Of a stretch of DNA of 63,098 bases, positions 14,079-46,094 are shown one piece after another (positions within the stretch are counted from its first letter, which is position 1; the number at the start of each line of letters is the position of its first letter). A program made the position numbers and the translations under genes. This DNA is from Folioceros fuciformis (taxonomy: Eukaryota): the NCBI GenBank assembly GCA_049999805.1, contig JBNGIO010005370.1, positions 1 through 63,098 of the forward strand, written 5' to 3'. Under the pieces are notes generated by a model. That model had not been told where the DNA came from. It saw only the letters and a list, made by a program, of their open reading frames with translations, and made no database searches.

Positions 14079-15829
14079 ATGGCGGTCTCCGTGAAGGGCC
14101 TGCTACTGTTTCTCCTCGTCTTGTGCACTTGTGTGAGCTGGATTTCTGCACAGACCCCAGCACCGGCGCCTAGAACTCCGGCTCCTCCGGTCGATGACGA
14201 TGAAGACGAGGCACCTGAGCCTGGAGTGGAGCCAGAGGATGAGAGTAAGCAAGGATTTGCGCTCTTTGTAACGTTGATCAATTTATGGTGATTTTTACCA
14301 GCATTTGGCGTGGGAAGACGCCGCGCGAGACGCTCTCATTGTGCTTTTTTGCTGTGATGTGTTCAGTCTGGACTTGGTGTGTGACGGATGCCAGCGACAA
14401 GCCGACGTGTGATTCCATGGTTCAGATCCTCGCAGGCCTTGATCCGGAGAAGGAGCACACTCACAACTGGTTAATCGCCGCGATTCACCTCTGTGTACTT
14501 GTGGCCAAAAGCTGTGAGTGGGAAAGTGTTATCTTAACTTTTTGCGTATCGTGCTGTATCGTGCTGCAGTATTATCGGAAATGGAGATGAAGACTGCATG
14601 AAAAAGGTTCAAAGCGGCGAGGCTAAGTTTGTCATCTTGGACGGTGGAGAGATTTGGGAAGCTAATAATGAGTATGGCCTGAAGCCCATCCGCACAGAGG
14701 TTTCCGCATTGGAAGGTAGCTACTACGGCGTGGGGATTGTGAAGGCAGGAAAGTGCCCCGGAAGCCTGAGTGACTTGAAGGGAAAGCGGTCGTGCCACAC
14801 CGGCTACAACAGAGCTACCGGATGGGTGTTTCCCGTGACCTATCTCGTTGATAACAAGATCATGCCTGTTGTCACCACGTAAGTGTAATGTCTGCCGTGA
14901 ATTTTGTTGTCACCACGTAAGTTTAATGTCTGCCGTGAATCTTGCAGTGTAAATGCGTATGAATCTTGCAGTGTAAATGCGTATGGCTGGCTTCTTGGTG
15001 TTACAGCTTGTTTTTTGACATGGACAGGGGCCCTCAATCCAACGACATCGAGTCTGTGAAAGCCTTTTTCAAAGCATCTTGCGCTGCGAACTCAGATCCC
15101 AATAAGGAAATATGTACTGCCTGCAAGATTAAGAACGCCTGCACCAAGTCCGATCCTTACTATGATTACGAGGGAGCTTTCAGGGGTTTGGTCGAGGATG
15201 CTTGTGATGTTGCCTTCACCAAGCACACCATAGTGGGCCAGTATGCGGTTGGTGGCCGATCCGCAGCGTCTGATTGGACAGGCCTGCAGGATGCATCGAA
15301 TTATGAGATTCTGTGCCCTAACAAGTACAATGGGAAAGTGTGTACCGATCCCGCCAACTATAAGGCTTGCAACTTCGGACAAGCCCCTGGACACGCCATC
15401 ATGGTGGCCAAAGACTATCCAGACTATGAGATCAACGAGTTCAACAACGTCATGAACGCAGCCAACTCGGACCCTGCCTTCATCAATTTGTTCTTTTCTG
15501 GTAAGATAGCGAGTCGCATAGGAAATTCCACGCAAAGTCTGACCATTTTTCCTTACTCGTGGCGAGGACATTGGCATCACTCTAATTTGGTTCGCCCAAC
15601 TGCTTCCTCAGGAAACAACAAAGAGGGACATATTTTTGCCCCAGATGCAACAAGGACGGTCATTTACACAGGAACCACCCAAGCTTTACTCGGCAACTTC
15701 TACAAAAACATCCAGGACTTGGAGAGTATCAATGCGCAGAAGACCTCGCCTAATAACGGTGACATAGCGAACACCGTATCTGCTTCGCTTTCTCTGATAG
15801 CCGGTCTCCTGTACCTCGTCTTTCAGTAG
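14079..15829 (+). CDS. Single-lobe transferrin-family protein 1, 422 aa, 5 exons; signal peptide and GPI-like C-terminus
   Basis: Exons 14079-14244, 14367-14469, 14570-14878, 15028-15500, 15612-15829 in consistent phase. Motifs LDGGE, SYYGVGIVK, KRSCHTGYNRATGW, YYDYEGAFRGL, DVAFTKH, APGHAI; ends SLIAGLLYLVFQ*. Confidence 0.92.
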
Positions 15830-17389: not shown

Positions 17390-19064
17390 ATGGCTCGGAG
17401 CGTGTGGAGCCAGCTGTTGGCGCTTTCGGTCCTGCTTCTGTTCGTGAGCTGGACAGGTGTGGTGAAGGCCCAGGAGGAGGCGGGTGAAGCTCCTGAGCCT
17501 GGAGTCGAGCCAGAGGATGAAAGTAAGTTTGTGCACGTCGATGCGGGGAGGACATTCGTAGAGCGACGTTTTGAAGAGCCAGGTTGAAGTTTTGGAATTG
17601 TCGGCTTGTTTTGGTGAGCAGAGTGGACTTGGTGTGTGACGGACACGAGCGACAAGCCGACGTGTGATGCGATGGTCAAGATCCTCCAAGCTCTGGATCC
17701 AGAGGACGAGCACGTTCACTCGTGGTGCGTTTTTCGGTCTTGGTGGTTTTGGTTTTCGTTGTTTGTAGCGTGGTGAGGGCAGATTGGAGGTGGAGGATTA
17801 CATTACGAATCGCTGGATTTGAATATGGTTGCGTGCAGTATCGTCGGGAACGGAGACGAAGACTGTATGAAGAGGGTCCAGAGCGGGGAAGCAAAGTTCG
17901 TGGTCCTGGACGGCGGTGAGATCTGGGAAGCCAGCAACGAGTACGGGTTGAAGCCTATCCGAACAGAGGTTTCGCAACTGGAGGGGAGCTACTACGGCGT
18001 GGGGATCGTGAAGAAAGGCAAGTGCCCGGGAAGCCTGGCTGACTTGAGGGGCAAGCGGTCCTGTCACACTGGCTACAACAGGGCCACCGGATGGGTGTTC
18101 CCCGTCACCTATCTTATAGACAACAAGATCATGCCCGTCGTCACCACGTAAGCTTCATTATTACGATTGTCCTCCAGATTCCGGAGCGGATGACTTCAGG
18201 TCCTGCAATTGCCAGAAATAAACATGTAGCGACTGGGATGGATTCGTCGAAGTCAGGTGATAATGCGGCTGACTGGGGGCTTTGTGGCAGGGGTCCTCAA
18301 TCCAACGACATCGAGTCTGTGAAGGCCTTCTTCAAGGCATCCTGTGCTGCCAACTCAGATCCCAACAAGGAGATCTGTTCTGCTTGCAAGATCAAGACCG
18401 CCTGCACCAAGTCTGACCCCTACTACGACTACGAGGGGTCTTTCAGGGGTTTGGTAGAGGATGCGTGCGACGTGGCCTTCACCAAGCACACAATAGTAGG
18501 CCAGTATGCCATGGGAGGAAGGTCTGCAGCGGCCGACTGGACCGGCCTGCAGGACGCAACCAATTATCAGATTCTGTGCCCTAACAAGTACAACGGGCAG
18601 GTGTGCACTGATCCCAGTAACTACAAGTCTTGCAACTTCGGCCAAGCCCCTGGCCACGCTATTCTGGTGGCCAAGGACTACCCGGACATCGAGATCAACG
18701 AGTTCAACAATGTCATGAATGCAGCCAACTCCGACGCTGCTTTCATCAACTTGTTTTTCTCTGGTCAGCTTCTTGCACCCTGCGCGCAACCATTCTTGCA
18801 TGCACGGTCTTTGTCTAACGCTACAATTTTCACTCCCTCGTATGTGCAGGAAACAACAAGGAGGGACACATTTTCGCACCAGACGCAACCAGGACTGTGG
18901 TATACACTGGAACCGCCCAGGCCCTTCTTGGAAATTTCTACAAGAACATCCAGGATTTGGAGAGTATCAACGCCCAGAAGGGCCCCACTGGCAGTGGAAC
19001 CAAGACTACCTCGTCAATTTTCTTGTCATTGGCTCTAGGTCTCCTGTACCTATTGTTTCAGTAG
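17390..19064 (+). CDS. Single-lobe transferrin-family protein 2 (tandem paralog), 410 aa, 5 exons
   Basis: Exons 17390-17522, 17622-17724, 17839-18147, 18291-18763, 18850-19064. Same intron positions and motifs as copy 1; ends SLALGLLYLLFQ*. Confidence 0.92.
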
Positions 19065-19812
19065 GCTTAGTGATAGAATCAGTCCCTCCCATCGGTCAGG
19101 TTGGTCTACGGCGTGGTGTGCAGCTTCGCAACGTGTACTGTCTATACACTGGGCGGGGGTGTTGTGTTGCTAGTAAGAGCGTGGGCAAAAAGGTGTGTAC
19201 TTTTAGAAAAATCTCATTAAAAATTTAATGAAAAAATGATTTCAGAAAGAAGTGTAGCCAAATCGATGAGAGGACATTTCCTTCTCGTACGAAATAGAAG
19301 GAACAATTTCCTAAACTATACTCACGTGAACGAAATGCCCACGCGAACAGGACCCTTCGTTCAAAGGGAGGCACCGGCATATCTGTGGCATTACCACTTC
19401 TGTGGGTGGTAAATCCTGGAAAATTCGTTGCAGCTGGTGAAGGAATTACCCGTCTTGAAGGGAAATGTGAAGGAATTGCCCGTCGTCACGGCACAATCCT
19501 TGTTACGATGCCTGACCTCATTCCACCATGTCACAATTCTAGTTAAGTCTCCTCCTCCTTCGCAGTATACCAAAGCTAGGTCGTAGAAAGGAGCCCTGGT
19601 TCGTTCCCCCTGGACCAATCAGGGGTCTGTTCTGAGGCCTTTCTGGGACTGTTCACTCAACTTCGTGAAAAGATGGATAACGGTTCACTCGGTTCTCATC
19701 AACTAGTCGGAGTCTAGCCGTGTAAACATGATAGCTAACACTCACTAAAACTCGCGGGACAATTTCCATTGCCTCTTCATCGAAAGGAATTGGCCCACCA
19801 GTAAAGTGAAAA

Positions 19813-21282
19813 CTAGTACCTGAGACTCTTAGCCACCTCAAAAAAGTGAGCGACGTTCTCCTCTGGCGTGCCCAACAGCACCCCATGTCCAAGGTTGAGG
19901 ATGTGTTTCCGAGTCCCCGCCTGACCCACGGTTTCATGGATCCGCTGAGAGATGAAGTCCTTTGTTCCGAACAGGACCCCTGGATCTATATTGCCCTGCA
20001 CTGCGCGATCCGTTCCTACCCTCTGCCTGGCTTCCGCCATGTCTACTGTCCAGTCCAGGCTAATGACATCTACGTCCGCCGTAGCCATTCGCTCCAGTAA
20101 CCCCCCGCTGCCACTGGCGTACAGGATGAGAGGGAGGTGAGGATGCGTGGCTTTCACTTCTCTCACTATCTGGTTGATGTATGGAAGGCTGAAAACCTCA
20201 AAATCCTTGGGGCTAAGATGAGTTGCCCACGAGTCAAAAATCTGCACAGCCTGTGCGCCTTTATCTGCTTGATACCTCGTGTAAATTATCACCGACTCTG
20301 CTAGCTTCCGCAAGAGCGAATGCAGAATCTGCACACAACGACTATTAAATAAACGCAAAATACTCTGCAAATAAGATAAACAAGGTCCATACGAAAACGT
20401 GAGTAGCTACCTCTGGCGTCTCAAATGCCAGTCTTTTTATGACTGTAAAGTGCTTCGATGATCCGCCCTCCACAATGTAAGAAGCCAGAGTGAAAGGAGC
20501 ACCAACGAAGCCCAATACCGTGGACGCATTTCCAACCTGAACAGAAGGAAACTGTCAACACTCATCAAAAGGGAAATAACAATACTCACCACCGCAGCAC
20601 CATCGCCGGGTTACCCTAAGCTCCCCTCGAAGAACCGATGTGGTACAGGACATACCTCTGAGCGTAAGGCCGCCAGTGCCTCCCCGACATAAGGCACGGC
20701 TTCTTCCGGGACGAGCTCTCGAACTTCAGCAACGTCTGCTGCCGTCCGAATCGGCTTGTGGATAACTGGTCCTTTGCTCTTCAAGATATCGAATGGTATA
20801 TTCATCCCTGTCAAAGGAGTCAAGATGTCCGAGAAGAGAATGACCTGCGCACCACAATCAAGAAAGCATCGCATTGTGAACCTCATGCCACGTGCCACAT
20901 GAAACAACGGCAAAGCACACTCACTCCATCTGGCTTGAACGCCCTCCACGGTTGCAGGGACACTTCCACAGCAACATCCACATTCTCTGATCTCTCCCTA
21001 AAGGTTGGATACTTTTCACATAGCTGCTGATAAACCTGCAGACCAAGGCGCTTTTAGAACTCGGTGCTCTTGGAAAAGAGCCAACCCACACTCGGCTAAA
21101 AGGCCAGCTAGCAGGATCTGGCCCCTCAACCGAAACTGTGCTCTTGGAACATACCTTCATATATCTACCAGCCTGCCTCATCAACCAGACGGGAGGCCTA
21201 TCTACGGTTTCTCCACGGACTGCTCGCAACAAGAGAGGATCTGATGTATTTGCATGAAGAGACTCAGGAGCGACTGCTACTG
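19813..21282 (-). CDS. HEME: Uroporphyrinogen decarboxylase, apparently the C-terminal half of a PPa-UROD fusion
   Basis: Exons 21282-21155, 21035-20925, 20844-20656, 20536-20411, 20328-19813. Motifs [47 protein letters not shown]. No transit-peptide exon of its own. Confidence 0.96.
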
Positions 21283-21403
21283 CTGTAAACAAGAGAAAGG
21301 GCATACATGTCATGAATCTACTAACTGCACCTTCAGAATCAGATTGTCAGACAGAGACGTGACAACAAGAATTTCAAAGGTTTTGGCTGAAGGCCATCTG
21401 CAC

Positions 21404-23024
21404 CTGCTGATTTCTTCGCGAGTTTTGCCCAAGCCTGGTTCGTCTCTGCAATCACATTTAATGCGTAGTCCTGGAACAAGGGGAAACTCAACCTCCGTTA
21501 GTGGAAAGTGTTACGTGCGCCCACAGCGCCAGACCTTGTCCCAGATTTATGTCATGCCGATGGACATACTTTATCGGCCGGCTTGTTTTCGAGTCCGAAT
21601 TTATTGGCAGGTTTTCCATCAGGGATCTTGTAGTCCCTGAACCAGTCTCGAATGGCAGTCAACGTTCCCTGATGACAAGGGCACATCAAGTAACAAATCA
21701 GGCTGAGAAACTCCTCAATATCCTACTCCCAGCGCACTCTGCATTCAAGGCATGACTTGATAAATACCGGAAAGTGTTTCTCCATGCTCTCCACATCGTT
21801 GACAAGAGAAGCCTTGGGGTCATCCACAGAGATGGCCACGACCTTCCAGTCCAGCTCGCCTTCATCGATCATGGCTAAAACTGCTAGTGGTTTGACCTGT
21901 AACACATCCCCGATCTTTGCTTGTCTCTCCCCGATTTCCACAACATCCACTGCACCAGAACACGGACACTTGAATTTAAGCACCTGCTGTCGTAAGAAAC
22001 AACGACTCACCCCAATTTTTGAAAAAGTCTTCAGGAAGCAGGTCCTTCACCTTGCCAGACTGTCTATGACGACTGGTAAACGCGTGCGAACGAACCTGGA
22101 TCATTGTCCCCAAATGCTCCTTCGACCTCCTTATTTGAGTGTTCCGGATCCTCCCAAGTTTGAGGCAGCAATCCATAATTCCAGTTTATGTTGTACCTGA
22201 CATTTCCACCAAAGAGTCATTTCCTCCCCCAGACTAGGACGTTATAAACGAATCAACCTGTCACACCACCAAGACATCGAATGAGGAGTACCGTAGACAG
22301 CACATACGGATAGTAGCGCAGCTTGCCCTTCTTGGTATCCTGTTTGATTGGATTGTGAGTCTCATCAGTTGCCACCTCCATTTTAGCCTTGGTTTCCTTC
22401 GGAATCTCCACAACGAAGTTAAACAGGCCATTTCCAGCATGGAGCGGGATGTCATGCCAAGGGGAAATCTGAGAGAGAGGAAAAAAACCGTCAACAACCA
22501 CCGATTCATAGTCTTCGAACCTCCATCACTCAACTCCAATCCAGAACGAACAAACACACTCCCTCACGCTTCACCATTGCTAACAAAAATCGTTCTACGG
22601 AACACCGCCATTGATTCCAAATTCTTCACACACAATCTCCTCATAGCACCGCGAAAAAAATGCACTCTTCGCCCGCCTCACTCAGCTCGGAAACTAATGC
22701 AGGCCAGATAGGCACGCTTCCAGCATTACTCACAGTCTTCCCCGACTCGTCAGAGAAGAAGACTCGGTAGTCGAGAGTCTCCGCCTTCCCTTCCTCCCGC
22801 ACCGCATAGTCCGGCCGCTGCAGCGCTCGCAACAAATGTAGGCCCCGCCTGGAACCGCTGGAAGCAGCAGGCCTGCGCCGCTGCCGGACCGCCTGGCCCG
22901 TCCATGCCCCGAGGCAGGCGCGCAGACCCGCAGGAACAGCGCACACCTCGATCTGCCGGGACAGGACCCGCGCAGAGGCCGGCGCACAGTAGGGCACGGC
23001 AGTCCGCACCCCAGCCACCGCCAT
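21404..23024 (-). CDS. Plastid-type soluble inorganic pyrophosphatase (PPa6-like), apparently the N-terminal half of the fusion
   Basis: Exons 23024-22734, 22468-22308, 22196-22096, 21949-21768, 21668-21570, 21470-21404. Ala/Arg-rich transit-peptide-like N-terminus; [53 protein letters not shown]. Confidence 0.95.
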
Positions 23025-23132
23025 CGCTGCGCCTCGCCAAGCTCGTCTCAGAATTCCACTGAGTCACCTCCTCCTCTTCGCCTTCAGGCAGACGAGCTCC
23101 AGACCCAAGCTCTGCTCCAATGAACGACTGTT

Positions 23133-23255
23133 ATCAGGTCTGTTATCTGTTTGCAGATTACCATGAATCGCGTTTCATTTCTCTGCTGTTGCATGTTGCT
23201 GTCAGGTCTGTTATCTTTTTGCTGATTGCCGACAGAATCGCGTTTCATTCCTCTG
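23133..23255. repeat. Direct duplication (~69-bp period) in the divergent PPa/FPPS intergenic region
   Basis: TCAGGTCTGTTATCT...GAATCGCGTTTCATT(T/C)CTCTG occurs twice. Confidence 0.75.
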
Positions 23256-23698
23256 ATGCTGTTTATTGAACTTGGCGGCTCTTGAGGAGAGAACAGAAGG
23301 AATAAGGCAAAAAAGCCCTTGTCGGGACTCTGAAGAGCCAGGCCAAAGGAGAAAAAGGCCCCTCGGTGCTGAAGCCTCGGTTACCAGAAAAGCCGGGTGG
23401 ACAGATCCATGCCCCTACCTGCATTGATTCTGGAGGCCCGGCTTCGCTGACCGTCGGACGGAGCGCGAAGGGTTTTTTCGAAGGCCTCGTCTGTTTCCGG
23501 TGGTGCTGTCCCGTTCTCGGATCTGAATTCTTGATACCAAGTATTGCTGGATTGAGATGTTTTCATGCCAGTCTGGTATCAAGACTGGAGGATTGGGATC
23601 GGGGGTTTGTGTTGTACTTTCTCGGCATGCAGCTATGGAGATTGCATGTTGTGAGTCGTGTTCGTTTTCTCAGGCCGTCTTGCCTTGCGTCGAGGACG

Positions 23699-25997
23699 AT
23701 GCCGTCGAGTGCTGCCGGCCCCGTCGCTGGGGAGGTTGTGAGTAATGGTAAATCCGAGGGCAAAGATGCTGTCAAGAGCCAGGGCTCTGGAGACAGATCT
23801 ACTTTTTTGGCTGTTTATGACACCTTGAAGAGCCTGTTGTTAGCGGATTCCAAGGCTTTCTCTTACACGGCCGAGTCACGAGCTTGGGTTGAAGAGGTGA
23901 TGCCAATGCCTGAGCTCTGTGATTCCCGCTCCAGTCCGGATGTGGGATTGTGCACTGACATTTTGTTTCTTTCCCGGGCAGATGCTCGACTACAACGTGC
24001 CTGGAGGTAGGCTTGCGACCTTGTGGTTGATGGCTTATGCATATTGCTGGTTCAAAGAGTCTTGGTCTCTCTGCGAAGGTTTTGTGTCGTTACGGTCTTC
24101 ATATCACGTCTGTGACTGCAGGGAAGCTGAACAGGGGACTGTCCGTGATCGACAGTTTGAGGCAATTGAAAAGCGAAGAGCTGTCGGAGCAAGAGGTTTT
24201 TCTGGCATGCGCTCTTGGATGGTGCATTGAGTGGGTAAGATAGTCATTTATGTCACCTGTGCAAGCGCTCAGAGGTGTAGCGTGTTATGGTCTGGTTCTT
24301 ACAGCAGGCTGGACCATGTTTGTTGATCATGCAGCTTCAGGCGTATTTTTTAGTGCTTGACGATATCATGGATAGCTCAGTGACCCGTCGAGGACAGCCT
24401 TGCTGGTTCCGTGTCCCGAAGGTCAGAATGCAGATGGGTACATCACCGTCTCAGTAGTCTTTGCAAGCACCTTGTTCCTCAGTCTGTGTTCGTTTCTTTC
24501 ACCAGAGCTGAACTGGGGTTTTGATGTTCTGTAGGTGGGGTCGATAGCCATAAACGATGGGGTCCTTTTGCGGAACCACATTTTTATAATTTTAACCACA
24601 TACTTTCGGGATCATCCCGTCTATGTTGACCTCCTGGAGCTCTTCAATGAAGTATGTGATCCAAGGACCAGCCCATCTCCTTTACATTGTCTATGGCATT
24701 GACATAGGAATTTTGCGTGACGGAATGGTTCGTTTTCCAGGTGGAGTATCAAACGTCTTCAGGTCAAATGCTTGATTTGATCACCACCCCTGCTGGGGAG
24801 GTTGACTTGTCCAAATATATTCTCCCAACGTAATATTCTTTCAAAATGACTGATAATGTGCAGATTCACTCTCGGTCTTGGTGATGGGACCAATCTGGGG
24901 CTTTAACTTGTAACTGCCTTTTGCAGATACATCCGAATTGTGCAGTTCAAAACTGCTTATTATTCATTCTACCTTCCTGTAAGCCCCGAATGACTTCATT
25001 TGGATCTGGGCTGGTTGTACGTTCGTGAGTCCAACAGCCCTGTGGGTTTCGTAGGTTGCATGTGCTCTGCTGCTGGCTGGAGAAAGCTTGGCTAAGCATG
25101 AATCAGTGAAGGATATTCTTGTACAGATGGGCACCTATTTTCAAGTGCAGGTAACCCTACATTTCCATCACAGGGCATAACAGCTCAGACTCTTGGCATG
25201 GTTGGGTAAGACTCTGTCTTTACCTCTCGTGCAGGTGCTCCTGACTGATGGGTGAGTATGGTGGCAGGATGATTTCCTGGACTGCTATGGCGATCCTCAA
25301 TTCATTGGAAAGGTTGGTATTGAGGTTATTTTAAGCAGTCCTCTGTGCGGAGTGTAATTAGTTCCTGTACCTGTCCGGATTGTCATTGGAGGATCTTCTT
25401 ATTGGTCTATTGAGCAGGTTGGTACGGACATAGAAGACACAAAATGTTCCTGGTTGGTAGTTCAAGCCTTGCAGCGAGCAGATGACGAACAGAAGGAGAG
25501 GATTAAGGTACTCTATACCGCTTGCTATTGATCTTGAGGACTTCATTTGTAACTTGATTTTTATAGTCATTCTATCCGATCTCAGAGAAACTACGGGAAA
25601 CATGATGCTGCTAAGGTCGCAGAAGTCAAGAAAGTCTACAACGAGCTAAATTTGCAGGTAGTTTTATGTTTGCCTGTACTGTGGAGCCGTTGTCTAGGGC
25701 CTTCGTCCTGATAATCACAACCTTCCTGGAACTCTCCTGTGAGCACGCGTTTCACCTTTATTAATTCCACAACTATTCTTACCCAGAAAGTGTACGCGGA
25801 CTACGAGCAAGAGAGCTACGAGAAGCTGACCGCTGCTATAGGGCAGCAGGAAAGTGCGAATATTCAAGTAAGCCCGTGTTGACCAGTAGGCTTTTCTTAT
25901 AGCTTGCTTGAGAGCGTGCTTTACGGCACAGTGACTGTGCTTCGTGCAGGGTGTGCTCAATAAATTTCTCGGGAAGATCTACAAGAGGTCGAAGTAG
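23699..25997 (+). CDS. FPS: Farnesyl diphosphate synthase, multi-exon
   Basis: [85 protein letters not shown]; ends KIYKRSK*. Start may be 23627 or 23699. Confidence 0.96.
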
Positions 25998-35355: not shown

Positions 35356-38300
35356 TTAAACTGAAACTTCCTTTGCTAGGACCTGGCTTCCGTCGCGCCT
35401 GCTACCCTTGGGCCCGGCTCTTGAATCATGATACAACGAGCTTTCGAGCTCGGATCTGATACCCTGAAGCAATCTATAAATCCTTGATTCTTGTTGGTGC
35501 CTGAAATCTCCGACCAGAAAATTGTGCACTTTCTGCTTGTGTTGCATCCAGGACTGGCCTGGATCTTTGCTTGCCCCTGCGGCCAGTTTCAAATTCTGTA
35601 TCTCTTCCACACAGTCCCGCATACCCGCATTGGCGTAGATATTGGTCATCATCGCATACGCCGCGCCATGTCTTGGTTCTAAGCACACAGCATTGTCGAA
35701 GGCTCGCCGCCCTAATGCCAAGTTGCCGTATTTTTGGCACGCCCCCAACAAGGACAGCCAGACAGGCAAGTCTGGTTCCACCGACATTTCTGAAAGCAAC
35801 TCTTCCGCCTTGATAAAAAGCCCGGCACGGCCAACAAGATCCACCACACAGGCGTAGTGCGCGAGTTGTGGATGGATTCCATACTCTCTGGTCATGGTTT
35901 CGAAGTAGTCCAACCCCTCAGCCACTGATCCAGCATGACTGCAAGCAGTGAGGAGTGCTAGAAACGTGACACTGTCTGGCTTCTCTCCTGAAAGGCACAT
36001 GGCATCAAAGCATCGTATGCTCATCTGACAATCTCCTTCTCGGGCATAGCCAGCTATAAGAGCAGTCCACGAGACAGTATCAGGCTGATGTAATGAATCA
36101 AAGACGACCTGCGCATCTGCCATGCTTCCACATTTACCATAGGCGTGGATGAGGCTGTTCGCAAGGGTGAGGCTACGCATCCCGGTACTGTCGACAATTT
36201 TTTGGTGGACTTGCCAACAGTTGTCCAGGGCTCCTGTGTTGCCACAGGCCTCCAGGACAGCGATATAAGTGGGCTCATGAGGGATAATGCCTTCTGCTTG
36301 CATCTGTGCGTACAGTTGCAGAGCTTTGTCTCCTTGGTCCTGCTGGGCATATCCTGCAATCATCGCAGTCCATGACACAACATCACGCTGCGGAGATTGG
36401 GCAAACATGTGTTCCGCATCTCTGATACTCCCACACTTTGCATACGTGCTAACCAATGCACTCCCAAGGAACAACGTCAGTGGAAACCCCCGTCTAGAAG
36501 CTCCAGCATGCAGTTCTTTCACTAGTTTCAGAGACTCAACCTTCACTATTTGCCCCTCCACATTTGTGCTCTTCTCCTCTGCTGCAATGCTGCCACATGC
36601 TTGGAGAGCACTGACAAAGGTTTGACCATCTGGAGGCACACCTTCCTGTTGCATTTCCTCATACATTTGCAACGCCATGTGGCCTCGCTCATGCTGGGCA
36701 TAGGACGCGATTATTGCTGTCCATGACACAACATCACGCTGGGACAAACCATGGAAGACCTTTTGTGCATCTGTGAGGCTCCCACACTTCGCATAAACGC
36801 TAACTAAAGTGCTCGCAATGAACACATCTGCACCTAGTCCCCAGAAAGTAGCTCTGGCATGTATTTCCTTTCCCTTTTGGAGGGACTGCAGTTTGATGTG
36901 TTGTCCATTCACGAGTGCAGGATCCTCCTCCTCTGCAAGCGTGCCACATGCTTGAAGGGTAGCAACACAGGTCCGTCCATCTGGTGTCATACCCTCCATT
37001 CCCATTTGCCGCAGCATCTGCAAGGCTTTTGTCCCTTCCCCTTGTTGAGCATAGAATGCGAGTACAGTGTTCCATGATACAATATCGCGCTGAGACAACC
37101 CATCAAAAACTTGCTGCATGTCTATACTGCTCCCACACCTGCCATACATGCTAAGCAATGCGTTCCCAACAAAAAAGTCTGTCCCAACACCTCTCTGAGT
37201 AGCCGCGGCATGAATCTCCTTCCCCTTCCTTAATGACTGAATCTTGACAATACTCCCATCCATGGATACACCTATCTCCTTTTCTGCAAGCATTCCACAT
37301 GCCTGAAGAGCACTAACGAAAACTCGCTGATTCGGTCTGATCCCTGCTTCCTGCATCTGCTCATACATCTGTAAAGCCATCACTCCTTGGTTTTGCTGTG
37401 CATATGCTGCGGCCATGGCAGCCCACAACACTGCATCTCGCTGTGTCAATCCATTGAAGACCTGTTGTGCATCCACAAGGCTCCCACTCTTTGCGTACAT
37501 GCTAACCAGACTGCTACCAACAAAGAGATCTGAATCAAATCTTCTCACAGCGGCTGCAGCATGCAATGCCTTTCCCTGTTGCAACAACCGCATTTTAACC
37601 TTCTGCCCGTTGACAACTGCGAGGTCATCATCCTCAGAAATTGCACCACAAGCTTGAAGAACACTGACAAAGGTCCGTGCATCTGGACTTACTCCCTCAT
37701 GTTGCATTCGACAATAGATTTGCAAAGCATTATCTCCTTGGCCCTGTTGAGCATACGCTGCAAGAATTGCGTTCCATGAGACTACATTACGCTCGGACAA
37801 TCTGTCGAAAGTCAGTTGTGCATCCGCAATGCTCCCACACTTGGCATACATACTAACTAGGGAGCTTCCCACAAAAACGTCTGTTTCTAGCCCATATTCC
37901 ACAGCCTCTGAATGAATGCGCTTGCCCGCTTGCAGATCTTGTAATCTGCCGCATGCCTTGAGTAGGGCAACAAAGGTATGATTGTCAGGGCGGATACCTT
38001 CCTGAAGCATCTGCTCATACCCTACAAGTGCCTCCCGGCATTTACCAGCTTTGACATGCCCTGCTAGGACGGCTGTCCACGAGAAAACAGTCCGCTGTGA
38101 CAACCTCTGGAACACTTCCAGCCCATCCTCTAGGCCTCCACAATTCACCAACGTTATCACCACAAGATCCAAAAGTCTGTTAGATTCCAGCCCACAATTT
38201 TCCAGATGAGAATGTACCACTTTGGCCTCTGCAAGGGCCCTCTTCCTTGCGCAGGCCTGCAACAGGTGTCTGTAAACGTGCACCGAAGCCACACTACCCT

Positions 38301-38445
38301 GTTCATCCATGCGCTGCAAGGCAAGCAGTGCCCTTTCCAGTTTCCCTTCCTTGCATAAACTTTCGATGTGCCATGATGGGTCAATTTCTCCAGAGGTAAC
38401 CCGCCACCTGGAAAACCCAAGATGCCAGGTTACAAACAGACTCAC
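35356..38445 (-). CDS. PLS-class PPR protein with E/E+ region and no DYW; probable organellar RNA-editing specificity factor
   Basis: Repeated P-L-S motifs (LVSMYAKCGS...DVVSWTAMIAGYAQ), then HYACVVDLVGRAG and KDPGQSW. 5' end uncertain (acceptor-like TTTTCCAG near 38408). Confidence 0.95.
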   Translation of the reverse strand: MSLFVTWHLGFSRWRVTSGEIDPSWHIESLCKEGKLERALLALQRMDEQGSVASVHVYRHLLQACARKRALAEAKVVHSHLENCGLESNRLLDLVVITLVNCGGLEDGLEVFQRLSQRTVFSWTAVLAGHVKAGKCREALVGYEQMLQEGIRPDNHTFVALLKACGRLQDLQAGKRIHSEAVEYGLETDVFVGSSLVSMYAKCGSIADAQLTFDRLSERNVVSWNAILAAYAQQGQGDNALQIYCRMQHEGVSPDARTFVSVLQACGAISEDDDLAVVNGQKVKMRLLQQGKALHAAAAVRRFDSDLFVGSSLVSMYAKSGSLVDAQQVFNGLTQRDAVLWAAMAAAYAQQNQGVMALQMYEQMQEAGIRPNQRVFVSALQACGMLAEKEIGVSMDGSIVKIQSLRKGKEIHAAATQRGVGTDFFVGNALLSMYGRCGSSIDMQQVFDGLSQRDIVSWNTVLAFYAQQGEGTKALQMLRQMGMEGMTPDGRTCVATLQACGTLAEEEDPALVNGQHIKLQSLQKGKEIHARATFWGLGADVFIASTLVSVYAKCGSLTDAQKVFHGLSQRDVVSWTAIIASYAQHERGHMALQMYEEMQQEGVPPDGQTFVSALQACGSIAAEEKSTNVEGQIVKVESLKLVKELHAGASRRGFPLTLFLGSALVSTYAKCGSIRDAEHMFAQSPQRDVVSWTAMIAGYAQQDQGDKALQLYAQMQAEGIIPHEPTYIAVLEACGNTGALDNCWQVHQKIVDSTGMRSLTLANSLIHAYGKCGSMADAQVVFDSLHQPDTVSWTALIAGYAREGDCQMSIRCFDAMCLSGEKPDSVTFLALLTACSHAGSVAEGLDYFETMTREYGIHPQLAHYACVVDLVGRAGLFIKAEELLSEMSVEPDLPVWLSLLGACQKYGNLALGRRAFDNAVCLEPRHGAAYAMMTNIYANAGMRDCVEEIQNLKLAAGASKDPGQSWMQHKQKVHNFLVGDFRHQQESRIYRLLQGIRSELESSLYHDSRAGPKGSRRDGSQVLAKEVSV

Positions 38446-38985: not shown

Positions 38986-41900
38986 TTACAAAGGACAAGC
39001 GACTTGGGGCCGCAGACTGTCTGCTAAACTTGAAAACCTCTTCGCTAGCTGAATTTCATCCACGCTGATGTAGTGCTTTCCCGTGCCCGCATCTGCCATC
39101 TTCTGCAAAGTTGCCACGTACTTTTGCTTACCGAAGAGGATGGTGTGGAAGATGAGACTGGGGTTGCTGTCCTTCATTTTCTTCACCATGGGGATCGGAT
39201 CTGTGCCCTTTTCATTCTTACCGTCACTAAGGAAGATGACAACAGGGGGCTTGTCTTTCATGTCGGCTCGCTGTGAAGCTCGCTGCAGAATCTTCTCAAC
39301 CTTTTCCAGGCAGAGCGAGTAGTTGGTTCCCCAAGGCAAGGTGTATTGACAGAGACCGGCCGCCAACGCGCGCACGTCTGATATGGGCTGCCCCTCGAGT
39401 ACGATGTCGGCCTTGCCGGAGAAGACGACAACGGACAAGAAATCTGATTGACCTGCCGCAACGCGGGTACGGATGAAGCGGATAACGGCTTCGTAGACGC
39501 ATCCCAGCCGATTGTCGAGGGACCTTGTCTGCCAATTTAGCGTTGGTCTCATGTCCCTCTCGAACATAGAGCCTGACTTGTCGATGGCGAACACCACGTG
39601 GCTTGGAGTATCTTTCACGTGAGTGCAACGGAAGACATGGCCGTCCTTCGTCACATGCGCTGCTGTTGCACTCGATTGTGTCGTGCTGACAGGTTGGTGC
39701 CACAACCTCTCAATGCAGTAGGATCGATTTTGCGGTGTGTGTTCTTCCGAAGGGCAGTAGTGTCCGCACATCTCGAACTGCTTCTGATCTTCTTCTTGGC
39801 AGGGGTCCTTGAACTTGAAGTACTTCCAATAAGCTGCGTGTGTCATTTCATCTTTGGGGACGGTCGTGTCAGGCCCATATTCTCTGGTCTGATGCCTTGC
39901 TCCTTCACAAATTCCTTCCTTGCATGCCTTGGACAGATCCGTTCGGTACTCCATCTCTCTCTCATCCGAGTCAGATCGCGAGAGCTCCTTCCTGCCATGG
40001 GCAATCCCAGGACATGTGACGAGGTGGATGTGGCCGCGGCCTCGGTTTCTGCAATGCATCATGCACATCTCGGCCACGCAAGATTCTCCCCACGCATATT
40101 TCCTGTCCCCTAAGTCGATTTCTTCTGAGTCTGCCACAAAACGTACGTCTCTCATGTTTCCATGTGTGGTCTCATGTAAGCCTGGATGCCCAAGGGGAAG
40201 ATGGCAGATGTATGCACAAACTGGACATCTTGTGGGGCAAAGGTGTACTGCTGCGGGATTGAGGGTGTGGCAGTGCTTGCCATCGTGTTTGTCCTTCCAG
40301 GGTGGAATCGGGATACAGCATGGTTTCCTGATCCCACCCTGCTCAGAAACATGGTCGTAGACAAATTGAGATCGCTTTCCCCAAAAGACCTGGGGCTTCT
40401 TGACCACCTCTGTCACGATCTCGCAGATTCCATCAGCCTCACAGTTCATCGGGCAAGTGTGTTGGTCACCGCAAAAATGGCTCGCATAGTAAAGAGAATG
40501 AAAGTGATCCTCGATTCCACACTTTCTGTTGCATCCGTCCATGATGCACGTCATGGGACACATCTTTTCGTGACATTCATGGTCATGGTGTTCTCCACAG
40601 TCAACAGCGATAGTACAGGGGTTGCTACACTCCGGTAGAGAACACTTCTTTGCACACACGTGCTGCCTGGTATTGCACCTGTGGTCTCCTTCATGTCCAG
40701 GCCTCTTTGCACAATGCTGGTTGCAGTTGGATGAGTTCAGAAGAGCACACATGTTCGAACATGTGTGGTTCCTCAGCTTACAGTCATGTGGACCGTCATG
40801 TCCCGAGCGATCGCTACACTCATGACACTGCAAGCCCTTTGATTGCTCTTCAAGGCAAAACGTACAAACCGCCGAGCAGTTATGCGTCCCCCTGCAAGTA
40901 TGCTTGTCTGAATGATTTTTTTCAATACTGCATCTCAGGAAACAGGTCTCGCACTTGCTTATACAGAGGGACAGGCTCTGCTTCACTTCCGCCAGGGTGG
41001 CAATGGCTTCCAAACGAAGCTTCTGAACATCAACATATGCATCCAGCTCCTGGAACTCTTCTGTGTTGCACCTGAGCCACTCCAGAATTCTGTTCCTCCG
41101 CCTATCAGCCAATGCCATGAGAAATTTCTCGAAGGAAGTGTGCCAACGCTCATCATCCATACCAGTCCGCTTCTCCACACATTGAAAACGGTCATTTAGG
41201 GCTTCAACAATGTCACTTATCACTTGTGTCTCCTCCGAAGGGTACAGTTCCAAGCCAGTATCAACGACATGGAACATAACACCATCAACCTCTACAGGCA
41301 TATCAGCAACTTCCTTCTGAGTTGCGAAGTCTGTCAGGACATGGCTGGCTCCCTGGCCCATAAGCTTTCCCAAGGAGATGGCCGATCGCATGTGTCGCTT
41401 CAGGAGCTCCACTTTTAGAGTCAAGCGCTTGGAGTCAATTGGAGACCAATCCTTGGTAGCTATCTGAGCCATCACCAGCTTCAGGTCTACTGCAAAGCTG
41501 CTGCCATTGCAGTGGACCGCTTTCAGTTCCTCCTTGACGAGTGTAGCTATAGAGGCAACACTTTCGTAATACTCCAACTTTTGGAAAGGTGACATCGTTG
41601 CTATCACAACATTCCCGCCGTACATCTTTGTAAGAAAATTGTCCACAGATTCTTTACAAATGCCGGATACCTTGTCTGTGAACGCTAATGTCAACGCATC
41701 GACATCTACACCATTCACGTCTTTGATAGCCAGGTAAAAGAGGCCTTTGAAGAGCCGGCTGTCCTCCTTCACCAAGCTTACGCCATTCTGAAAGCGCTTG
41801 AAGACAACTTCTGTGTCTTTGTCCAGAGAAAAGTCCTGCCCAGATCATGTAGTTAGCCTCACCCATATAATGCCTGTTGTACCACTCATGACCCAAATGC

Positions 41901-44900
41901 ACAAGGTAGGATTGGAGGTCGTACCTTTTTATTGAATATAGTGATGTTGCTCACGGCCGCATTTAGAAGAGAGAGGAGCATATCCTCCTGCTCGCTTCTC
42001 TCAAAGCTTCCCAATCCCTCAAAGTCCAGAAGAACATACAAGCAGCTCTTGGATTCACGTATAGTCATCCACGCTCCGTCTGTGCATCTGCCTCCAGACA
42101 CGTCGAGTAGCGAACCAGCCAAGTGGTTAAGCAGGTACGACTTCCCACTGCTCTGCTTACCCATGGACGATATCACTTTGAGATTCCCAGACCAGTGGGC
42201 TAACACGGACTCGTAAAAACCAAATCGCAGGGCCTCAGCTAGCTCCACTGCATTTCCATACATGAGATTGGGATTTTGCAGCCCGTCTACTAAAGGCCGC
42301 AAGCTGTTGTTCTCGGCTCGCGCTAGTTGAATGGGAACAAGGCAAACAAGGCGTCGAGTCCAATCCCCTAGTTTGGCTCTGTTTCTACCTCCTGTGCTCT
42401 CCAGAAGAGCATTATCGACGATGTAGCTGTCCACATTGCCCGATGAAAGATGTACCGTCAGATGCGAGAGATCTTTCCCATTTTCCGCTGCCAGCCTGCG
42501 TATGGAATCGTTGACGTACTTCACAGACTCACGCTTCAAAGCCTCCAGTTTCTCCCTGGATTCTCCAGCGAAAAGCAGATGAAGATGGAGTTCTTTTATC
42601 TCTTCGATCAGAGGGGGGTTCGTAGCATACTTCTCATATATGTGATAAATATATTCCAAAGCCGGACAGCCATGGCCAACCGTGTCGTTGCGTGCAGAGG
42701 AAATGCGAGCGCTGTCCATAAGTTGCAGCTGGCAGGCTTCAGAAGCGGATGTGATGTCCAAAACCTTGGAGCATATTCCTCTCTCCGGCCTTGAAACATC
42801 CAGAAGTACGAGATGGACCTGACTTCCGAAGGCCACTACTGTTGCATCAATGCTCACTACGTCTGCTACTGCGTAGTCAAGGCTGAGTGTCTTCAGATGC
42901 CTTATTGACTCGCCAAGTAGGTAGACCTCAACCTTCAAAATACCTTCAGCATACTTTTCCATCTCAAGCTGGGTACCAGTCTGGCCCCTATCTCGCGCCA
43001 ACCCGTCTAGATCTGTTGCTGGGTCAGGTCCGCCTGGAAGAAACTTGTAGAAGGCCATCAAACAAGATCCATCTGTGGAAACACAAATCTTATGGGCAGG
43101 ACCAGGTAACTGCATGTCCCCTGCTTTCTGCATGGCAGTGCTCATTTCGAACACCCGAACTCTGAATTCTTCGTCAACTAGCACCATTTCTCTCCTCCCA
43201 GGGATGAACGACAATGACTTCAGGACACCGATTCCACAGTGCTCGCGGAGCTCCAAGGTAACTCCAGAACACTCCAACACGCGGAAGGATTCGTCCTGAA
43301 AGATGAGGATCTCGATTTTGGCCAATTCCCTATCATACAAGCCAACGAGTTTTGCAGTTTCATCCACTGCCACAAGGTCGTAACCCCTCTTGAAGGTCTT
43401 GACGGGAGGCACGGCTCGCATATCTACACCCAATGAAGAGAGCACAAAAAGATGAAGAGCTACCCCTTCACGGTCCTCCATGAACACTAAAAGCGGACCT
43501 GATTTTACGGCAACTACCTGAGACAGCATCTCCGATTCCATATCCACCTCAATCAACCCAAGGTTCTCTGAACACCTGGGATTGATGACGAGTCCGGAGT
43601 CAGACATGAGATGTTGCAAATCCTCTTGCATTGGTGTAAACTCCGCGACCTCCCACGAGATCCGCTGACTCTCTGTCTTCTCAAACTCGTACTGAAGAAC
43701 CAGCTGTTTGGCACGGTTTTCAGCTTGTGAGGTGACGCCTAGAATGAAGTTTCGTGCTTGGTTATACTTGCCTTGTTCCTTCCAAAAGCACCTTGAAACG
43801 GACAGACGATGTTCTTGATGTGTCCCACTGGACAGCTGCTTTTGCACAAACTGCCGTACTTCCCTTTCCTGGCGGCGCTCCAAGATCTTCGTGACATGTT
43901 TACGTCTTACTTCAAACTCAATCTTCTTCTTCAACAAGGGGGCCACCTCTTCGCTAACCATTTTCTTGAGTCGGCTGGAAAATTCTTCAAGGGCTTGTTT
44001 ATAAGCCTCTCGCACCAGATCCAGCATCCATTTCCTTTCCTCAGGAGCAATCTTGTCCAAGGGGAGATCTCCGCTGGAAAACTCTGACCTTACGCTGTTG
44101 GTCACTCCCTTTGTCTTCAGCAACTCCTGAAGAGCTCGTTTTGAAAATTGATCCTGGAATTGGCTCTTCTTGTCACCCCGAGACACCGCAATCTTGTATG
44201 CAACTTCTAAAATTCGAGAACGGATGCCACATGCATCTGATTCATTGAAGACCTCAGGAGTTGCAAGTGCCCAGGCCAGAGCATCGATCGAGGCCTGGAA
44301 AGGGCGCACAATAGGCCTGCCATATTGCTCCATCCATGTCAGCATTCCGTTCACTGATGTTTCGTCTGTAACAAGCTGACCTTTCCAGTCCTGTGGATTT
44401 TGAGTGGAGGCATTGCCGTACTGGATGGTGACGCCAATAAGTCGACACGTTAGAATTGGGCCTTCGCAGAAATCCTCGCTGGGAGCCTTGCATATCAGCC
44501 TAATATGACTTTTGGGCGTGGCCAGAAACCCTTCTCCATCACCTTTGGGCGTGGCCACAAATTCTTCCCCATAAAGAATAGGGCCTGCCGATAATCCTTC
44601 AGACCGCAGTGGTGAGGAAATCCTATCCACGATGAACTTTGCAGTGCCACTGTACGGTTTCCACGCGCTGTTCGTGTCTTTCTCTATCATTTGGAATTCT
44701 GTACCAACAAAAATGAAAGATCCACATTTCTTTCTTGCTTGAAGCTGGCCAACATCGCCTGTCCAGATATCAACCAGGGCAGCTTCTGCCTGAAGCAGAT
44801 CATTCGGTTGGAACACACTGTGCACGGGTGACGACGCAACACCGGAAGGGGAAACCCCAGAAGTTGTTAACAGCCCCTGGAGCCATGGATGGTACCGATC

Positions 44901-46094
44901 TAAGTACGCCTTTGAGGCATCTCCGCTTAAAATTCTCAGAACGGTCTGTTGTTCGCCTTGCATGAGATCTTCTATTGCGGAAGACTTTCCCCTTTGAACA
45001 CAATGATTCTTCCTGTCTTCCTGGGACTTCCTCAGCGAGCGAAACCCTGTGCTCCATTCAAAACCAGCATGCTCCAAAAACAGACAAAGTTCTTGGTAAG
45101 GTAGCTGCGTGAAGTCAAGATGAAAGGAGCCACACCAGCCCTGCACAAGATTGGCTAAGAGTTGACTGTCCACTGTCTCCTTGTCCTGTGTCAGAGTTGT
45201 CTTAGCAGGGACCACTGACGAAGAAAGCAAAACGCAACGGTGAAGACCGCCAGCCAGTCTGCAACTAGTCTCCAAGCGGGAAGATGTGCCCACATTGCCT
45301 AGCGTCTTCGAATCCCTTGAGACTCTTGAGAGGAATGTAGGACACTCGCGAAAACCCTCCCGCAGCTTCACATCGTTCTCTGCCTGCTTGATCTTAGATA
45401 TCTGGAGCCTCTGCGTACGCTGCTTTCTGGGAGCGGCACTGGTAGAGCGTGCCGAGGTCATGAGAGACAAATCCACATCATTTTCATCGTCCAGGCAGAT
45501 GTAGACAGTGGCACACAAGTCCGCCACATACCGAATGAAGTTGCAAGACACATGCTTCCGGGAGGCCTTCACCATTCGCGCGCCCTCATGCCAATACACA
45601 ATGAACAACACTCCCTGATGAAGAAAGGCATAGATCCCTACATCACGAGAGTTCGACATCGAGGACACAACACCATGAAGCCCAAGCTTCGCGAAAATTT
45701 GAGCGATGACCTTCTTGCTTCCATACAGTCCCACAACGTGGGCAGACTCACTGTTCAACGCGTTGAAGTCCAGCAGCGTCGTCCCATCGCGACATGCCGC
45801 TGACTTGAGCCTGACCTCATTGCAAAATCTTTCAATCTCATCAGGAGGTATGATAACCTTCTCCACGAAGCCGTATCCCTGCTTGTCCAGCCTCAGGTGC
45901 ATGAGCGTGTGCAAAGTTGGCCCCTCGATCGAATCTCTTGCACTTGCATTACTTCTGGCATATGCATCAGGAGACACCTCTGGAACCTCGTGCGCGACAT
46001 GGATCCGACGGACGGAAATAAGGCCGTCTTGTGCGATTGGAGGGAATGCGACTGCCGTGTCGCAGTCCTCTTTTTCCGGATTCTTAGATCCCAT
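38986..46094 (-). CDS. Giant protein (~2,339 aa): long N-terminal region, GBP/atlastin-like GTPase, Cys/His-rich repeats, C-terminal VWA
   Basis: Exon 1 46094-41925 and exon 2 41835-38986, joined by an 89-nt phase-0 GT-AG intron. G1 MGKQSSGKSYLLN, G2 RCTDG, G3 LLDFEGL; many C/H motifs; MIDAS DKSGS and VIFLSDG. Confidence 0.9.

Follow-up and report, generated by a model that had tools for sequence, protein, structure and literature searches.

The question raised by this locus of Folioceros fuciformis is whether a plastid soluble pyrophosphatase of the PPa6 type and a uroporphyrinogen decarboxylase (UROD), which are normally separate enzymes, are encoded here as one protein. An in-frame fusion had been proposed from the letters alone (the original prediction), and we followed it up within a 63,098-nt window, that is, the whole stretch of contig JBNGIO010005370.1 that was analysed. 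Transcripts were taken from the assembled contigs of four runs (X1, X2, X3 and X7) carrying four organism labels; the RNA origin of these runs follows only from their intron-free contigs, and RNA stands in the run labels as a guess.

Structure of the fused gene and its transcripts

The fused gene lies on the minus strand of the window (23024-19813) and consists of 11 exons, with GT..AG borders in all 10 introns. The exons sum to 1,971 nt in a single frame, as had been predicted, and translate into 656 residues followed by a TAG, with no internal stop. They belong to one pre-mRNA, the promoter region of which is upstream of ~23104. The features, with the evidence for each, are as follows.

23129..23268, no strand given: two direct-repeat copies of ~69 nt, 82-85% alike (repeat families D2 and D3)
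23025..23104, minus strand: 5' untranslated region (the X1 transcript contig reaches 23104; ATG at 23024)
22734..23024, minus strand: exon 1, with the start codon, the presequence and the beginning of the mature pyrophosphatase (alignment with chloroplastic PPa6 N-termini)
22468-22308, 22196-22096, 21949-21768, 21668-21570 and 21470-21404, minus strand: exons 2-6, family I soluble pyrophosphatase domain (PF00719, alignment, splice joints)
21283..21403, minus strand: fusion intron, 121 nt, GT..AG (skipped in contigs of X1, X2, X3 and X7)
21339..21341, minus strand: read-through TGA inside the fusion intron (translation)
21302..21313, minus strand: two ATGs in the UROD frame within the fusion intron, at 21313-21311 and 21304-21302 (open reading frame 20921..21313 and translation)
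21282-21155, 21035-20925, 20844-20656, 20536-20411 and 20328-19813, minus strand: exons 7-11, mature HEME2-type UROD (PF01208, alignment)
19815-19813, minus strand: UROD stop TAG (translation)
19568..19812, minus strand: 3' untranslated region (the X1 contig begins at 19568)

The ~69-nt direct repeat is found just upstream of the transcript 5' end and may be a promoter element. An 18-nt stretch of the acceptor region (21279-21296) resembles one in exon 7 (21219-21236; family D6); this was set aside, being at the level of the other short two-copy chance families.

The junction itself was reproduced on the sequence as predicted. The last pyrophosphatase exon has no stop and ends ...KKSA at a phase-1 donor, AG/GTGCAG (21404/21403), and the acceptor TTTACAG, 121 nt downstream, restores the frame for exon 7, the first exon of UROD. 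The 5' end of the fusion intron sits where the lost C-terminal codons of the pyrophosphatase would be. If the intron is retained, translation gives a stand-alone pyrophosphatase of 321 residues, closed by the TGA at 21341-21339 after 21 extra codons, again as predicted. The gap had also been judged too small for a UROD promoter or transit-peptide exon, and this view holds: it measures 121 nt, and the UROD part starts at the mature N-terminus. Both in-frame ATGs of the intron are spliced out in the observed transcripts. Only on a transcript that is unspliced or internal could they serve as start codons, for a UROD devoid of a transit peptide, and no transcript supporting their use was seen among the contigs of the four runs.

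In X1, a single contig of 2,296 nt matches the window from 19568 to 23104 with 0 mismatches and contains 10 of 10 splice joints, including 21404^21282. Contigs of 2,188, 2,245 and 2,394 nt cross the same junction in X2, X3 and X7, which carry three other organism labels. The joint 21282^21404 (skipping 121 nt, CT..AC on the plus strand) is present in one contig each from X1, X2 and X3, and in X7 the joint 21279^21404 skips 124 nt, a shift of exactly one codon (3 nt) that keeps the frame. The predicted in-frame fusion is thereby found within a single full-length contig in each of the four runs, at the expected position in three and 3 nt away in X7. The join thus recurs in independent spliced contigs, which excludes both chance and an assembly error.

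The listed pieces of X2, X3 and X7 differ from the window by 1 to 10 letters in 100. Of 215 rows of contig-versus-window differences, 40 were listed; of 20 indels against the window, 12 were listed and all 12 fall in untranslated regions. Between the window and X2, 18 of the 22 differing codons in UROD exon 11 are synonymous. No contig in the four runs covers the 121-nt intron or any other intron of the gene, contigs being prone to drop rare variants. Equally, no separate UROD contig or pyrophosphatase-only contig from the fused locus was found in these runs, although rare forms escape contigs. More generally, assembled contigs do not resolve rare isoforms, transcript starts or polyadenylation sites, so that the lack of intron coverage does not speak against retention, and a pyrophosphatase-only mRNA that keeps the intron, or a UROD transcript begun internally, may have gone unseen.

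Separate unfused copies had been named as a point to settle, and one was found for the pyrophosphatase: a PPa6-like paralogue is expressed in all four runs (contigs of 701-1,357 nt, ~78-80% alike on exon 4). The depths in X1 are 61 for the fused contig and 167 for the paralogue, values that are not an expression ranking. The same run contains a contig of depth 3.9 with several mismatches, which lies on parts of UROD exon 11 and has an odd skip of 202 nt; it could be a paralogue or carry-over from another sample and did not enter the interpretation.

Conservation and distribution of the two halves

Exon 4 alone matches the family I pyrophosphatase profile (PF00719, E 1.5e-15, 57.8 bits against a gathering cutoff of 23.5), and exons 2, 5 and the read-through form of exon 6, scanned singly as stretches of 33-53 residues, gave no Pfam match. 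The pyrophosphatase half aligns collinearly with nine plant and algal PPa6 proteins, with 64-72% identity over 284-296 columns and 90% identity to a Ceratodon protein in the exon 4 segment. It retains 124 of the 128 columns that are invariant in these nine relatives, each of which, left out in turn, changes 0-11 columns. The four changed columns (D110N, T136N, D239S and K283N) are all outside the aspartate-rich motif DNDPVDV, itself intact.

The presequence and the whole domain of the pyrophosphatase are kept. The first 70 residues contain 14 Ala, 12 Arg and 1 acidic residue, and the presequence of ~70 residues aligns with those of proteins named chloroplastic PPa6 at source; the presequence in exon 1 is likely a chloroplast transit peptide. 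At the other end the usual last eight residues are missing, a C-terminal motif found in eight of the nine aligned relatives. The native C-terminus (...PAGELSL-x, then stop) is absent and the UROD half follows directly after ...KKSA.

The UROD profile (PF01208) was found on exons 7, 9, 10 and 11, which cover profile positions 2-30, 68-132, 135-174 and 176-345 of 346, respectively, with E 1.4e-58 on exon 11. The Pfam scan covered these four exons, and exon 8 aligns gap-free with plant URODs. Against ten plant and algal URODs the UROD half is 73-82% identical over 355 aligned columns, gap-free from its DPLLLRA start through the C-terminal RY, and 178 of the 181 columns invariant in these ten are retained, three being changed; leaving out each relative in turn changes 1-11 columns. 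As judged by these alignments, neither half shows relaxed constraint, and the conservation of each is equal to that of its unfused relatives. Moss, lycophyte and liverwort URODs are the nearest named proteins among the matches listed, and in the UROD tree the query falls, without further resolution, among mosses, liverworts and zygnematophyte algae in a group of 14 rows.

The UROD part opens with AVAVAP... at the place where the first mature residues of stand-alone URODs (AVAA...) stand, and the 55-75-residue presequences of the nine UROD relatives listed with one have no counterpart in it. Since its start coincides with the transit-peptide end of stand-alone URODs, the UROD half has no targeting signal of its own. 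Its first Met in the spliced mRNA is inside the conserved N-terminal core motif, and UROD is therefore not translatable alone from that mRNA.

In line with the usual separation of the two enzymes, protein database searches for the combined PF00719 and PF01208 architecture gave no protein with both domains among the 120, 120 and 120 matches listed. PF00719 is the sole Pfam domain in all 120 exon 4 relatives among the matches listed, and those that are named and full-length have ~280-345 residues. Long pyrophosphatase-containing proteins numbered 177, and PF01208 is absent from all 120 of them that were listed. Most of the listed ones have ATP sulfurylase-type architectures, and one (P0409) joins a UDP-glucose-pyrophosphorylase-type domain to the pyrophosphatase. 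Ten long UROD matches were checked and included three HemD-HemE proteins and one HemE-radical SAM/HemN protein; a pyrophosphatase domain was not found in this search either. No description of a pyrophosphatase-UROD pairing was found in the literature, and the pairing appears to be undescribed so far.

Proposed origin of the fusion and competing readings

We consider it highly probable that the locus is an obligate gene fusion giving rise to a plastid-imported two-enzyme precursor. The precursor of 656 residues would enter the plastid by means of the N-terminal presequence of the pyrophosphatase and would form a two-enzyme polypeptide in the stroma, in which pyrophosphate would be hydrolysed by the first domain and uroporphyrinogen III turned into coproporphyrinogen III by the second. 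The two domains are predicted to be linked by a variable stretch of ~15 residues before the conserved UROD core. What is observed of this bifunctional polypeptide is its in-frame spliced mRNA; the protein is inferred from it.

As to origin, PPa6 may have been duplicated, with one copy standing immediately 5' of a copy of UROD. The stop and terminator of the pyrophosphatase would then have been lost by deletion, together with the promoter and transit-peptide coding region of UROD, and a donor eight codons before the old pyrophosphatase end would have been spliced to an acceptor at the mature UROD start. In this way the UROD copy probably took over its neighbour's promoter and transit peptide, and the two chemistries need not be linked. 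The deletion scenario draws its support mainly from position and little from sequence: translation of the intron's 5' end was considered as a recognisable relic of the old PPa6 C-terminus and rejected, with two of eight residues identical, which leaves the positional argument only.

A different fate of the same product, which we regard as unlikely, is that of a polyprotein: after import by the pyrophosphatase presequence, the linker would be cut to release two separate stromal enzymes. The linker would stem from the residues that once followed the cleavage site of the UROD transit peptide, and the fusion would serve expression and targeting only. Internal processing of stromal precursors is not known to be the rule in land plants, which speaks against such a cut. 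The junction does fall exactly at the transit-peptide/mature boundary of stand-alone URODs, and the UROD without its own targeting signal would fit this fate. The sdh2-rps14 gene of grasses offers a precedent for a targeting peptide borrowed by splicing, although only the targeting part is shared there (PMC1543663), whereas the present gene carries a complete, well-conserved pyrophosphatase domain.

It is also doubtful that selection favoured the covalent link for a cooperation between pyrophosphate hydrolysis in the stroma and the synthesis of tetrapyrroles, for example with the pyrophosphatase tethered to an assembly that includes glutamyl-tRNA synthetase or chlorophyll synthase, which release pyrophosphate. 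UROD itself releases CO2, and pyrophosphate is neither made nor used in its reaction. The fusion is in frame under four organism labels with both domains constrained, as selection for coupling would have it, but such conservation among close relatives is expected of any fusion that is not harmful. Other pyrophosphatase fusions are functional pairings, those with ATP sulfurylase (PMC2275785) and P0409 among them. The present pairing was seen nowhere else in the searches, which include the 120 listed long pyrophosphatase proteins. A link between pyrophosphate removal and tetrapyrrole flux, as raised in the original prediction, is speculation; the pyrophosphatase fusions among the long proteins listed have partners that do release pyrophosphate.

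Regulated retention of the 121-nt intron, the splice switch that had also been suggested, would make the pyrophosphatase alone, and splicing would make the fusion, with the ratio setting UROD output; we think this improbable and found no support for it. The retained intron does keep the frame open up to a stop after the 21 extra codons, but past its first few residues this tail matches nothing in the relatives when aligned with plant PPa6. Moreover, each of the four runs joins across the intron, even if minor isoforms escape contigs, and the unfused PPa6-like paralogue expressed in all of them could supply free pyrophosphatase, so that a splice switch is needless for the free enzyme.

An artefact, either an assembly misjoin or two adjacent genes with UROD started at the in-frame ATG at 21313 or 21304, is scarcely credible and largely refuted by the transcripts, as de novo contigs from four runs stay collinear with the window through the junction and lack precisely the intron, no N runs are found near the fused gene (the sole N run of the window is at 55409-55508) and a UROD begun at these intronic ATGs would have no transit peptide.

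Significance and comparison with known systems

A conserved, expressed, in-frame fusion is a new domain architecture for two textbook stromal proteins that are separate elsewhere in the searches. It further provides a clean case from nature in which a nuclear gene has come by a promoter and plastid targeting through merger with the gene upstream of it. Should the two activities remain on one polypeptide, biochemistry gains a natural two-activity protein; if a targeting signal was captured neutrally and nothing more, the event is an evolutionary curiosity and not new physiology. The fusion also gives a directly testable hypothesis on a tie between the hydrolysis of pyrophosphate and the synthesis of tetrapyrroles. 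It is a long shot that the gene acts as a 'Rosetta stone', revealing that a stromal pyrophosphatase is built into the tetrapyrrole machinery of this plant lineage; were this true, the coupling of pyrophosphate removal to chlorophyll and haem synthesis would be expected in other plants too, in non-covalent form.

The first half resembles the plastid PPa6 of land plants (family I, eukaryote type, ~300 residues) in its presequence, in DNDPVDV and in the other invariant columns, but differs in lacking the family's last eight residues and in running on into a second enzyme. The second half is like chloroplast UROD of the HEME2 type (~390-410 residues), to which it is 73-82% identical; unlike the stand-alone enzyme, it has neither a transit peptide nor a start codon of its own and forms the C-terminal half of a fusion. 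Two known classes were considered and rejected. A conjoined (read-through) gene pair does not fit, as 121 nt leaves no room for a promoter or first exon and the four runs contain no separate contig of either half from this locus, rare forms aside; nor does a pyrophosphatase joined to a pyrophosphate-releasing partner of the ATP sulfurylase type, as the partner here is UROD, which releases CO2.

Stramenopiles and haptophytes have ATP sulfurylase-pyrophosphatase and APS kinase-ATP sulfurylase-pyrophosphatase fusions, in which pyrophosphate is set free by the ATP sulfurylase partner and the fusion serves to draw an unfavourable reaction forward (PMC2275785). The present gene likewise joins a family I pyrophosphatase covalently to a metabolic enzyme, but its UROD partner has no pyrophosphate chemistry and its pyrophosphatase is N-terminal. 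In sdh2-rps14 of grasses, a mitochondrial targeting peptide is shared by alternative splicing between two products (PMC1543663). There as here, a downstream protein without a presequence receives one from spliced upstream exons; but the grass products have no more than the targeting part in common, whereas in the present gene the upstream enzyme is kept entire, one isoform is seen and the destination is presumably the plastid. Finally, the bacterial HemD-HemE and HemE-HemN fusions also join UROD to another enzyme, but they unite neighbouring steps of one pathway, whereas the pyrophosphatase stands outside the tetrapyrrole pathway.

Structure and transcription of the fused gene

We read the minus strand of the locus with three-frame translation and set the exon borders from splice-site context. 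Pfam domains are given where an exon matched.

Exons of the fused pyrophosphatase-uroporphyrinogen decarboxylase (UROD) gene, all from translation and splice-site context
23024-22734 (-), exon 1
22468-22308 (-), exon 2
22196-22096 (-), exon 3
21949-21768 (-), exon 4, PF00719
21668-21570 (-), exon 5
21470-21404 (-), exon 6, last pyrophosphatase exon
21282-21155 (-), exon 7, first UROD exon, PF01208
21035-20925 (-), exon 8
20844-20656 (-), exon 9, PF01208
20536-20411 (-), exon 10, PF01208
20328-19813 (-), exon 11, PF01208

These exons total 1,971 nt and translate into 656 residues followed by TAG, with no internal stop, and all ten introns (80-265 nt) have GT..AG borders. Exon 6 closes at a phase-1 donor (AG/GTGCAG, 21404/21403), and an acceptor (TTTACAG) 121 nt downstream restores the frame. 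The original prediction of eleven exons in a single frame, with this donor and acceptor, was borne out, and all of its factual statements were correct. The UROD exons cover positions 2-30 and 68-345 of the 346 in the PF01208 profile. The sole run of N in the window is an assembly gap of 100 N at 55409-55508.

Contigs from four sequencing runs with different organism labels (X1, X2, X3 and X7, the last three being small-share runs) were then placed on the locus at a likeness of at least 80%. The 'RNA?' label of these runs is a guess, and RNA origin was judged from missing introns. Of the words sampled from 19700-23100, X1 (organism label A) contained 0.55, approximately the exonic fraction of this interval. 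A single 2,296-nt X1 contig spans 19568-23104 with 0 mismatches and omits exactly the ten predicted introns; their precise absence shows that the contigs come from spliced RNA. The junction on which the original prediction turned, 21282^21404 (121 nt, CT..AC on the plus strand, 66 letters on the shorter side in X1), was also present in X2 (2,188-nt contig) and X3 (2,245-nt contig). In X7 (2,394-nt contig) the joint is 21279^21404, the three extra bases adding one codon and leaving the frame intact. All 12 of the indels listed, from 20 in total, fall within untranslated regions.

A de Bruijn contig over two genes is alone no proof of a single molecule; the exon 6/exon 7 joint arises only through cis-splicing, and the pre-mRNA therefore contains both genes. 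Exon 6 has no in-frame Met and the first Met of the UROD half aligns within the conserved N-terminal core, so the spliced mRNA gives UROD no start codon of its own. The fused gene is thus one transcription unit with an in-frame splice, and the join is kept in four organism labels. An artefact of assembly or chance is practically excluded by the splicing of ten introns, the exon 6/7 joint in spliced contigs from four runs and the missing UROD start.

Conservation of the two halves

Protein searches used single exons, exon 4 for the pyrophosphatase and exon 11 for UROD. Among the matches listed, the nearest to exon 4 include plant proteins named at source as chloroplastic soluble pyrophosphatase 6 (PPa6), and named full-length relatives have about 280-345 residues; identity was 90% in Ceratodon and 87% in Marchantia. 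Aligned with nine PPa6 proteins, the fused protein retains the presequence and the entire domain and is without the final 8 residues after ...KKSA, where 8/9 relatives carry the C-terminal motif PAGELSL-x. It alters 4 of the 128 columns invariant in the nine relatives (0-11 for the relatives themselves, counted by leaving one out). The original prediction had also raised the matter of separate unfused copies. On the pyrophosphatase side, all four runs contained an unfused PPa6-like contig of 701-1,357 nt, with about 78-80% likeness on exon 4, which covers only pyrophosphatase exons 2-4 (21767-22468) and has its exon 2/exon 3 border at the same place. There are therefore at least two paralogues, and the fused pyrophosphatase is a duplicate.

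The nearest relatives of exon 11 among the matches listed are plant URODs, about 390-410 residues long (Ceratodon 81%, Sphagnum 80%, Selaginella 79%, liverworts 78% identity). In an alignment with ten URODs, the fused UROD begins (AVAVAP...) where the mature residues of the stand-alone enzymes begin (AVAA...) and runs gap-free to the C-terminal RY, with no counterpart to the 55-75-residue transit peptides of the nine relatives listed with one. The fused UROD hence lacks its own start and presequence. It alters 3 of the 181 columns invariant in relatives (1-11 for the relatives, leave-one-out), and of the 22 exon 11 codons in which X2 differs from the window, 18 are synonymous. By the leave-one-out counts neither domain shows relaxed constraint, and both are well conserved. 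In the UROD tree the query belongs neither to the liverwort clade (100/98) nor to the moss group (89/91), and it is separate from the vascular-plant groups; it falls among bryophytes and zygnematophyte algae in a set whose branching is unresolved. The likely source is a land plant whose lineage the protein databases lack, probably a hornwort. A further X1 contig of depth 3.9, with several mismatches and an unexplained 202-nt skip (19908^20111), lies on parts of exon 11 (19838-20250) and may be a paralogue, an allele or carry-over from another sample.

Genomic neighbourhood

The window has about 50% G+C and short introns, and the neighbours include F-box/kelch genes. A direct repeat of roughly 69 nt occurs twice at 23129-23268 (copies 82-85% alike), directly upstream of the fused transcript contig's 5' end, and may be a promoter element. 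A separate 3,976-nt X1 contig, beginning at 23316, about 210 nt from that 5' end, indicates another gene a short way upstream; in this region, the ORF at 23366-24007 (+) had no Pfam match. Just downstream of the fused gene, two long ORFs on one strand and separated by 3 kb, 14966-15826 (+) and 18091-19035 (+), both match PF00405 (transferrin family; E 4.7e-18 and 1.5e-17) and resemble a tandem pair; to our knowledge transferrin-family genes are unusual in land plants. An intronless PPR gene (35359-38445, minus strand) encodes 1,029 residues of PLS type with an E motif, an arrangement characteristic of RNA-editing factors in land-plant organelles. Beyond it lie two very long ORFs without interruption, 38989-41775 (-) of 929 residues and 41889-46094 (-) of 1,402 residues; of the two, one carries a VWA domain at its C terminus and the other weak, below-cutoff GBP/URGCP-like GTPase matches at its C-terminal end, and the remainder of both had no Pfam match.

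Apparent novelty, proposed origin and comparison with known fusions

PF00719 was found in 0/120 listed relatives of UROD exon 11 (5,012 matches at E 1e-20 or better) and PF01208 in 0/120 listed relatives of exon 4 (529 matches). Among the 150 listed matches from a search of 1.84 billion cluster representatives, ten had at least 469 residues; domain scanning of all ten gave three HemD-HemE, one HemE-radical SAM/HemN, one with a PNGase fragment and five UROD only, with a pyrophosphatase domain in none. With Ceratodon PPa6 as query against targets of 535-2,000 residues, PF01208 was absent from the best 120 of 177 matches, among which pyrophosphatase recurred with ATP sulfurylase (with or without APS kinase) or EF-hand/PH domains and once with a UDP-glucose-pyrophosphorylase-type domain. 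As annotated, the fusion appears absent from mosses, liverworts, lycophytes, ferns and seed plants; identity was 90% or less in every match on either exon. The databases evidently lack this lineage, and the negative results are uninformative on how widely the fusion occurs in close relatives. Consistent with the original prediction, which knew of no earlier description, we found none in literature searches, nor the architecture among the protein matches listed. Passages of one fusion survey (PMC4921024) list HemD- and HemC-type fusions and no pyrophosphatase-UROD pair; its supplementary tables could contain more. The fusion is real, expressed and conserved, and apparently not described before; what is new is the domain architecture, its components being two ordinary enzymes.

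On the simplest view, a deletion between two neighbouring genes would have taken the stop and terminator of the pyrophosphatase and, with them, the promoter and transit-peptide region of UROD, after which a donor within the former last pyrophosphatase exon could join an acceptor where mature UROD begins. With the donor 8 codons short of the usual pyrophosphatase end, the positional argument for a deletion is sound; the first codons of the intron weakly resemble the old C-terminus (2/8 residues identical). The pyrophosphatase presequence would import the 656-residue precursor into the plastid, and both domains would be active in the stroma, with the variable segment of some 15 residues before the UROD core as their linker. 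We consider it very probable that the fused precursor exists, and at best probable that it also persists as a bifunctional protein; its cleavage after import is unlikely. Reading through the 121-nt intron does give, as predicted, a pyrophosphatase with its stop at 21341-21339; this form has 321 residues, and a splice switch to it is unlikely.

Metabolic coupling under selection is likewise unlikely. According to PMC2275785, the ATP sulfurylase-pyrophosphatase fusion serves to pull a reaction that releases pyrophosphate; the partner here is UROD, to which that rationale does not apply. Capture of a promoter and transit peptide is the most economical reading, over a new metabolic link. The nearest precedent for capture of a targeting signal is sdh2/rps14, in which, according to PMC1543663, rps14 uses the sdh2 targeting peptide via splicing.
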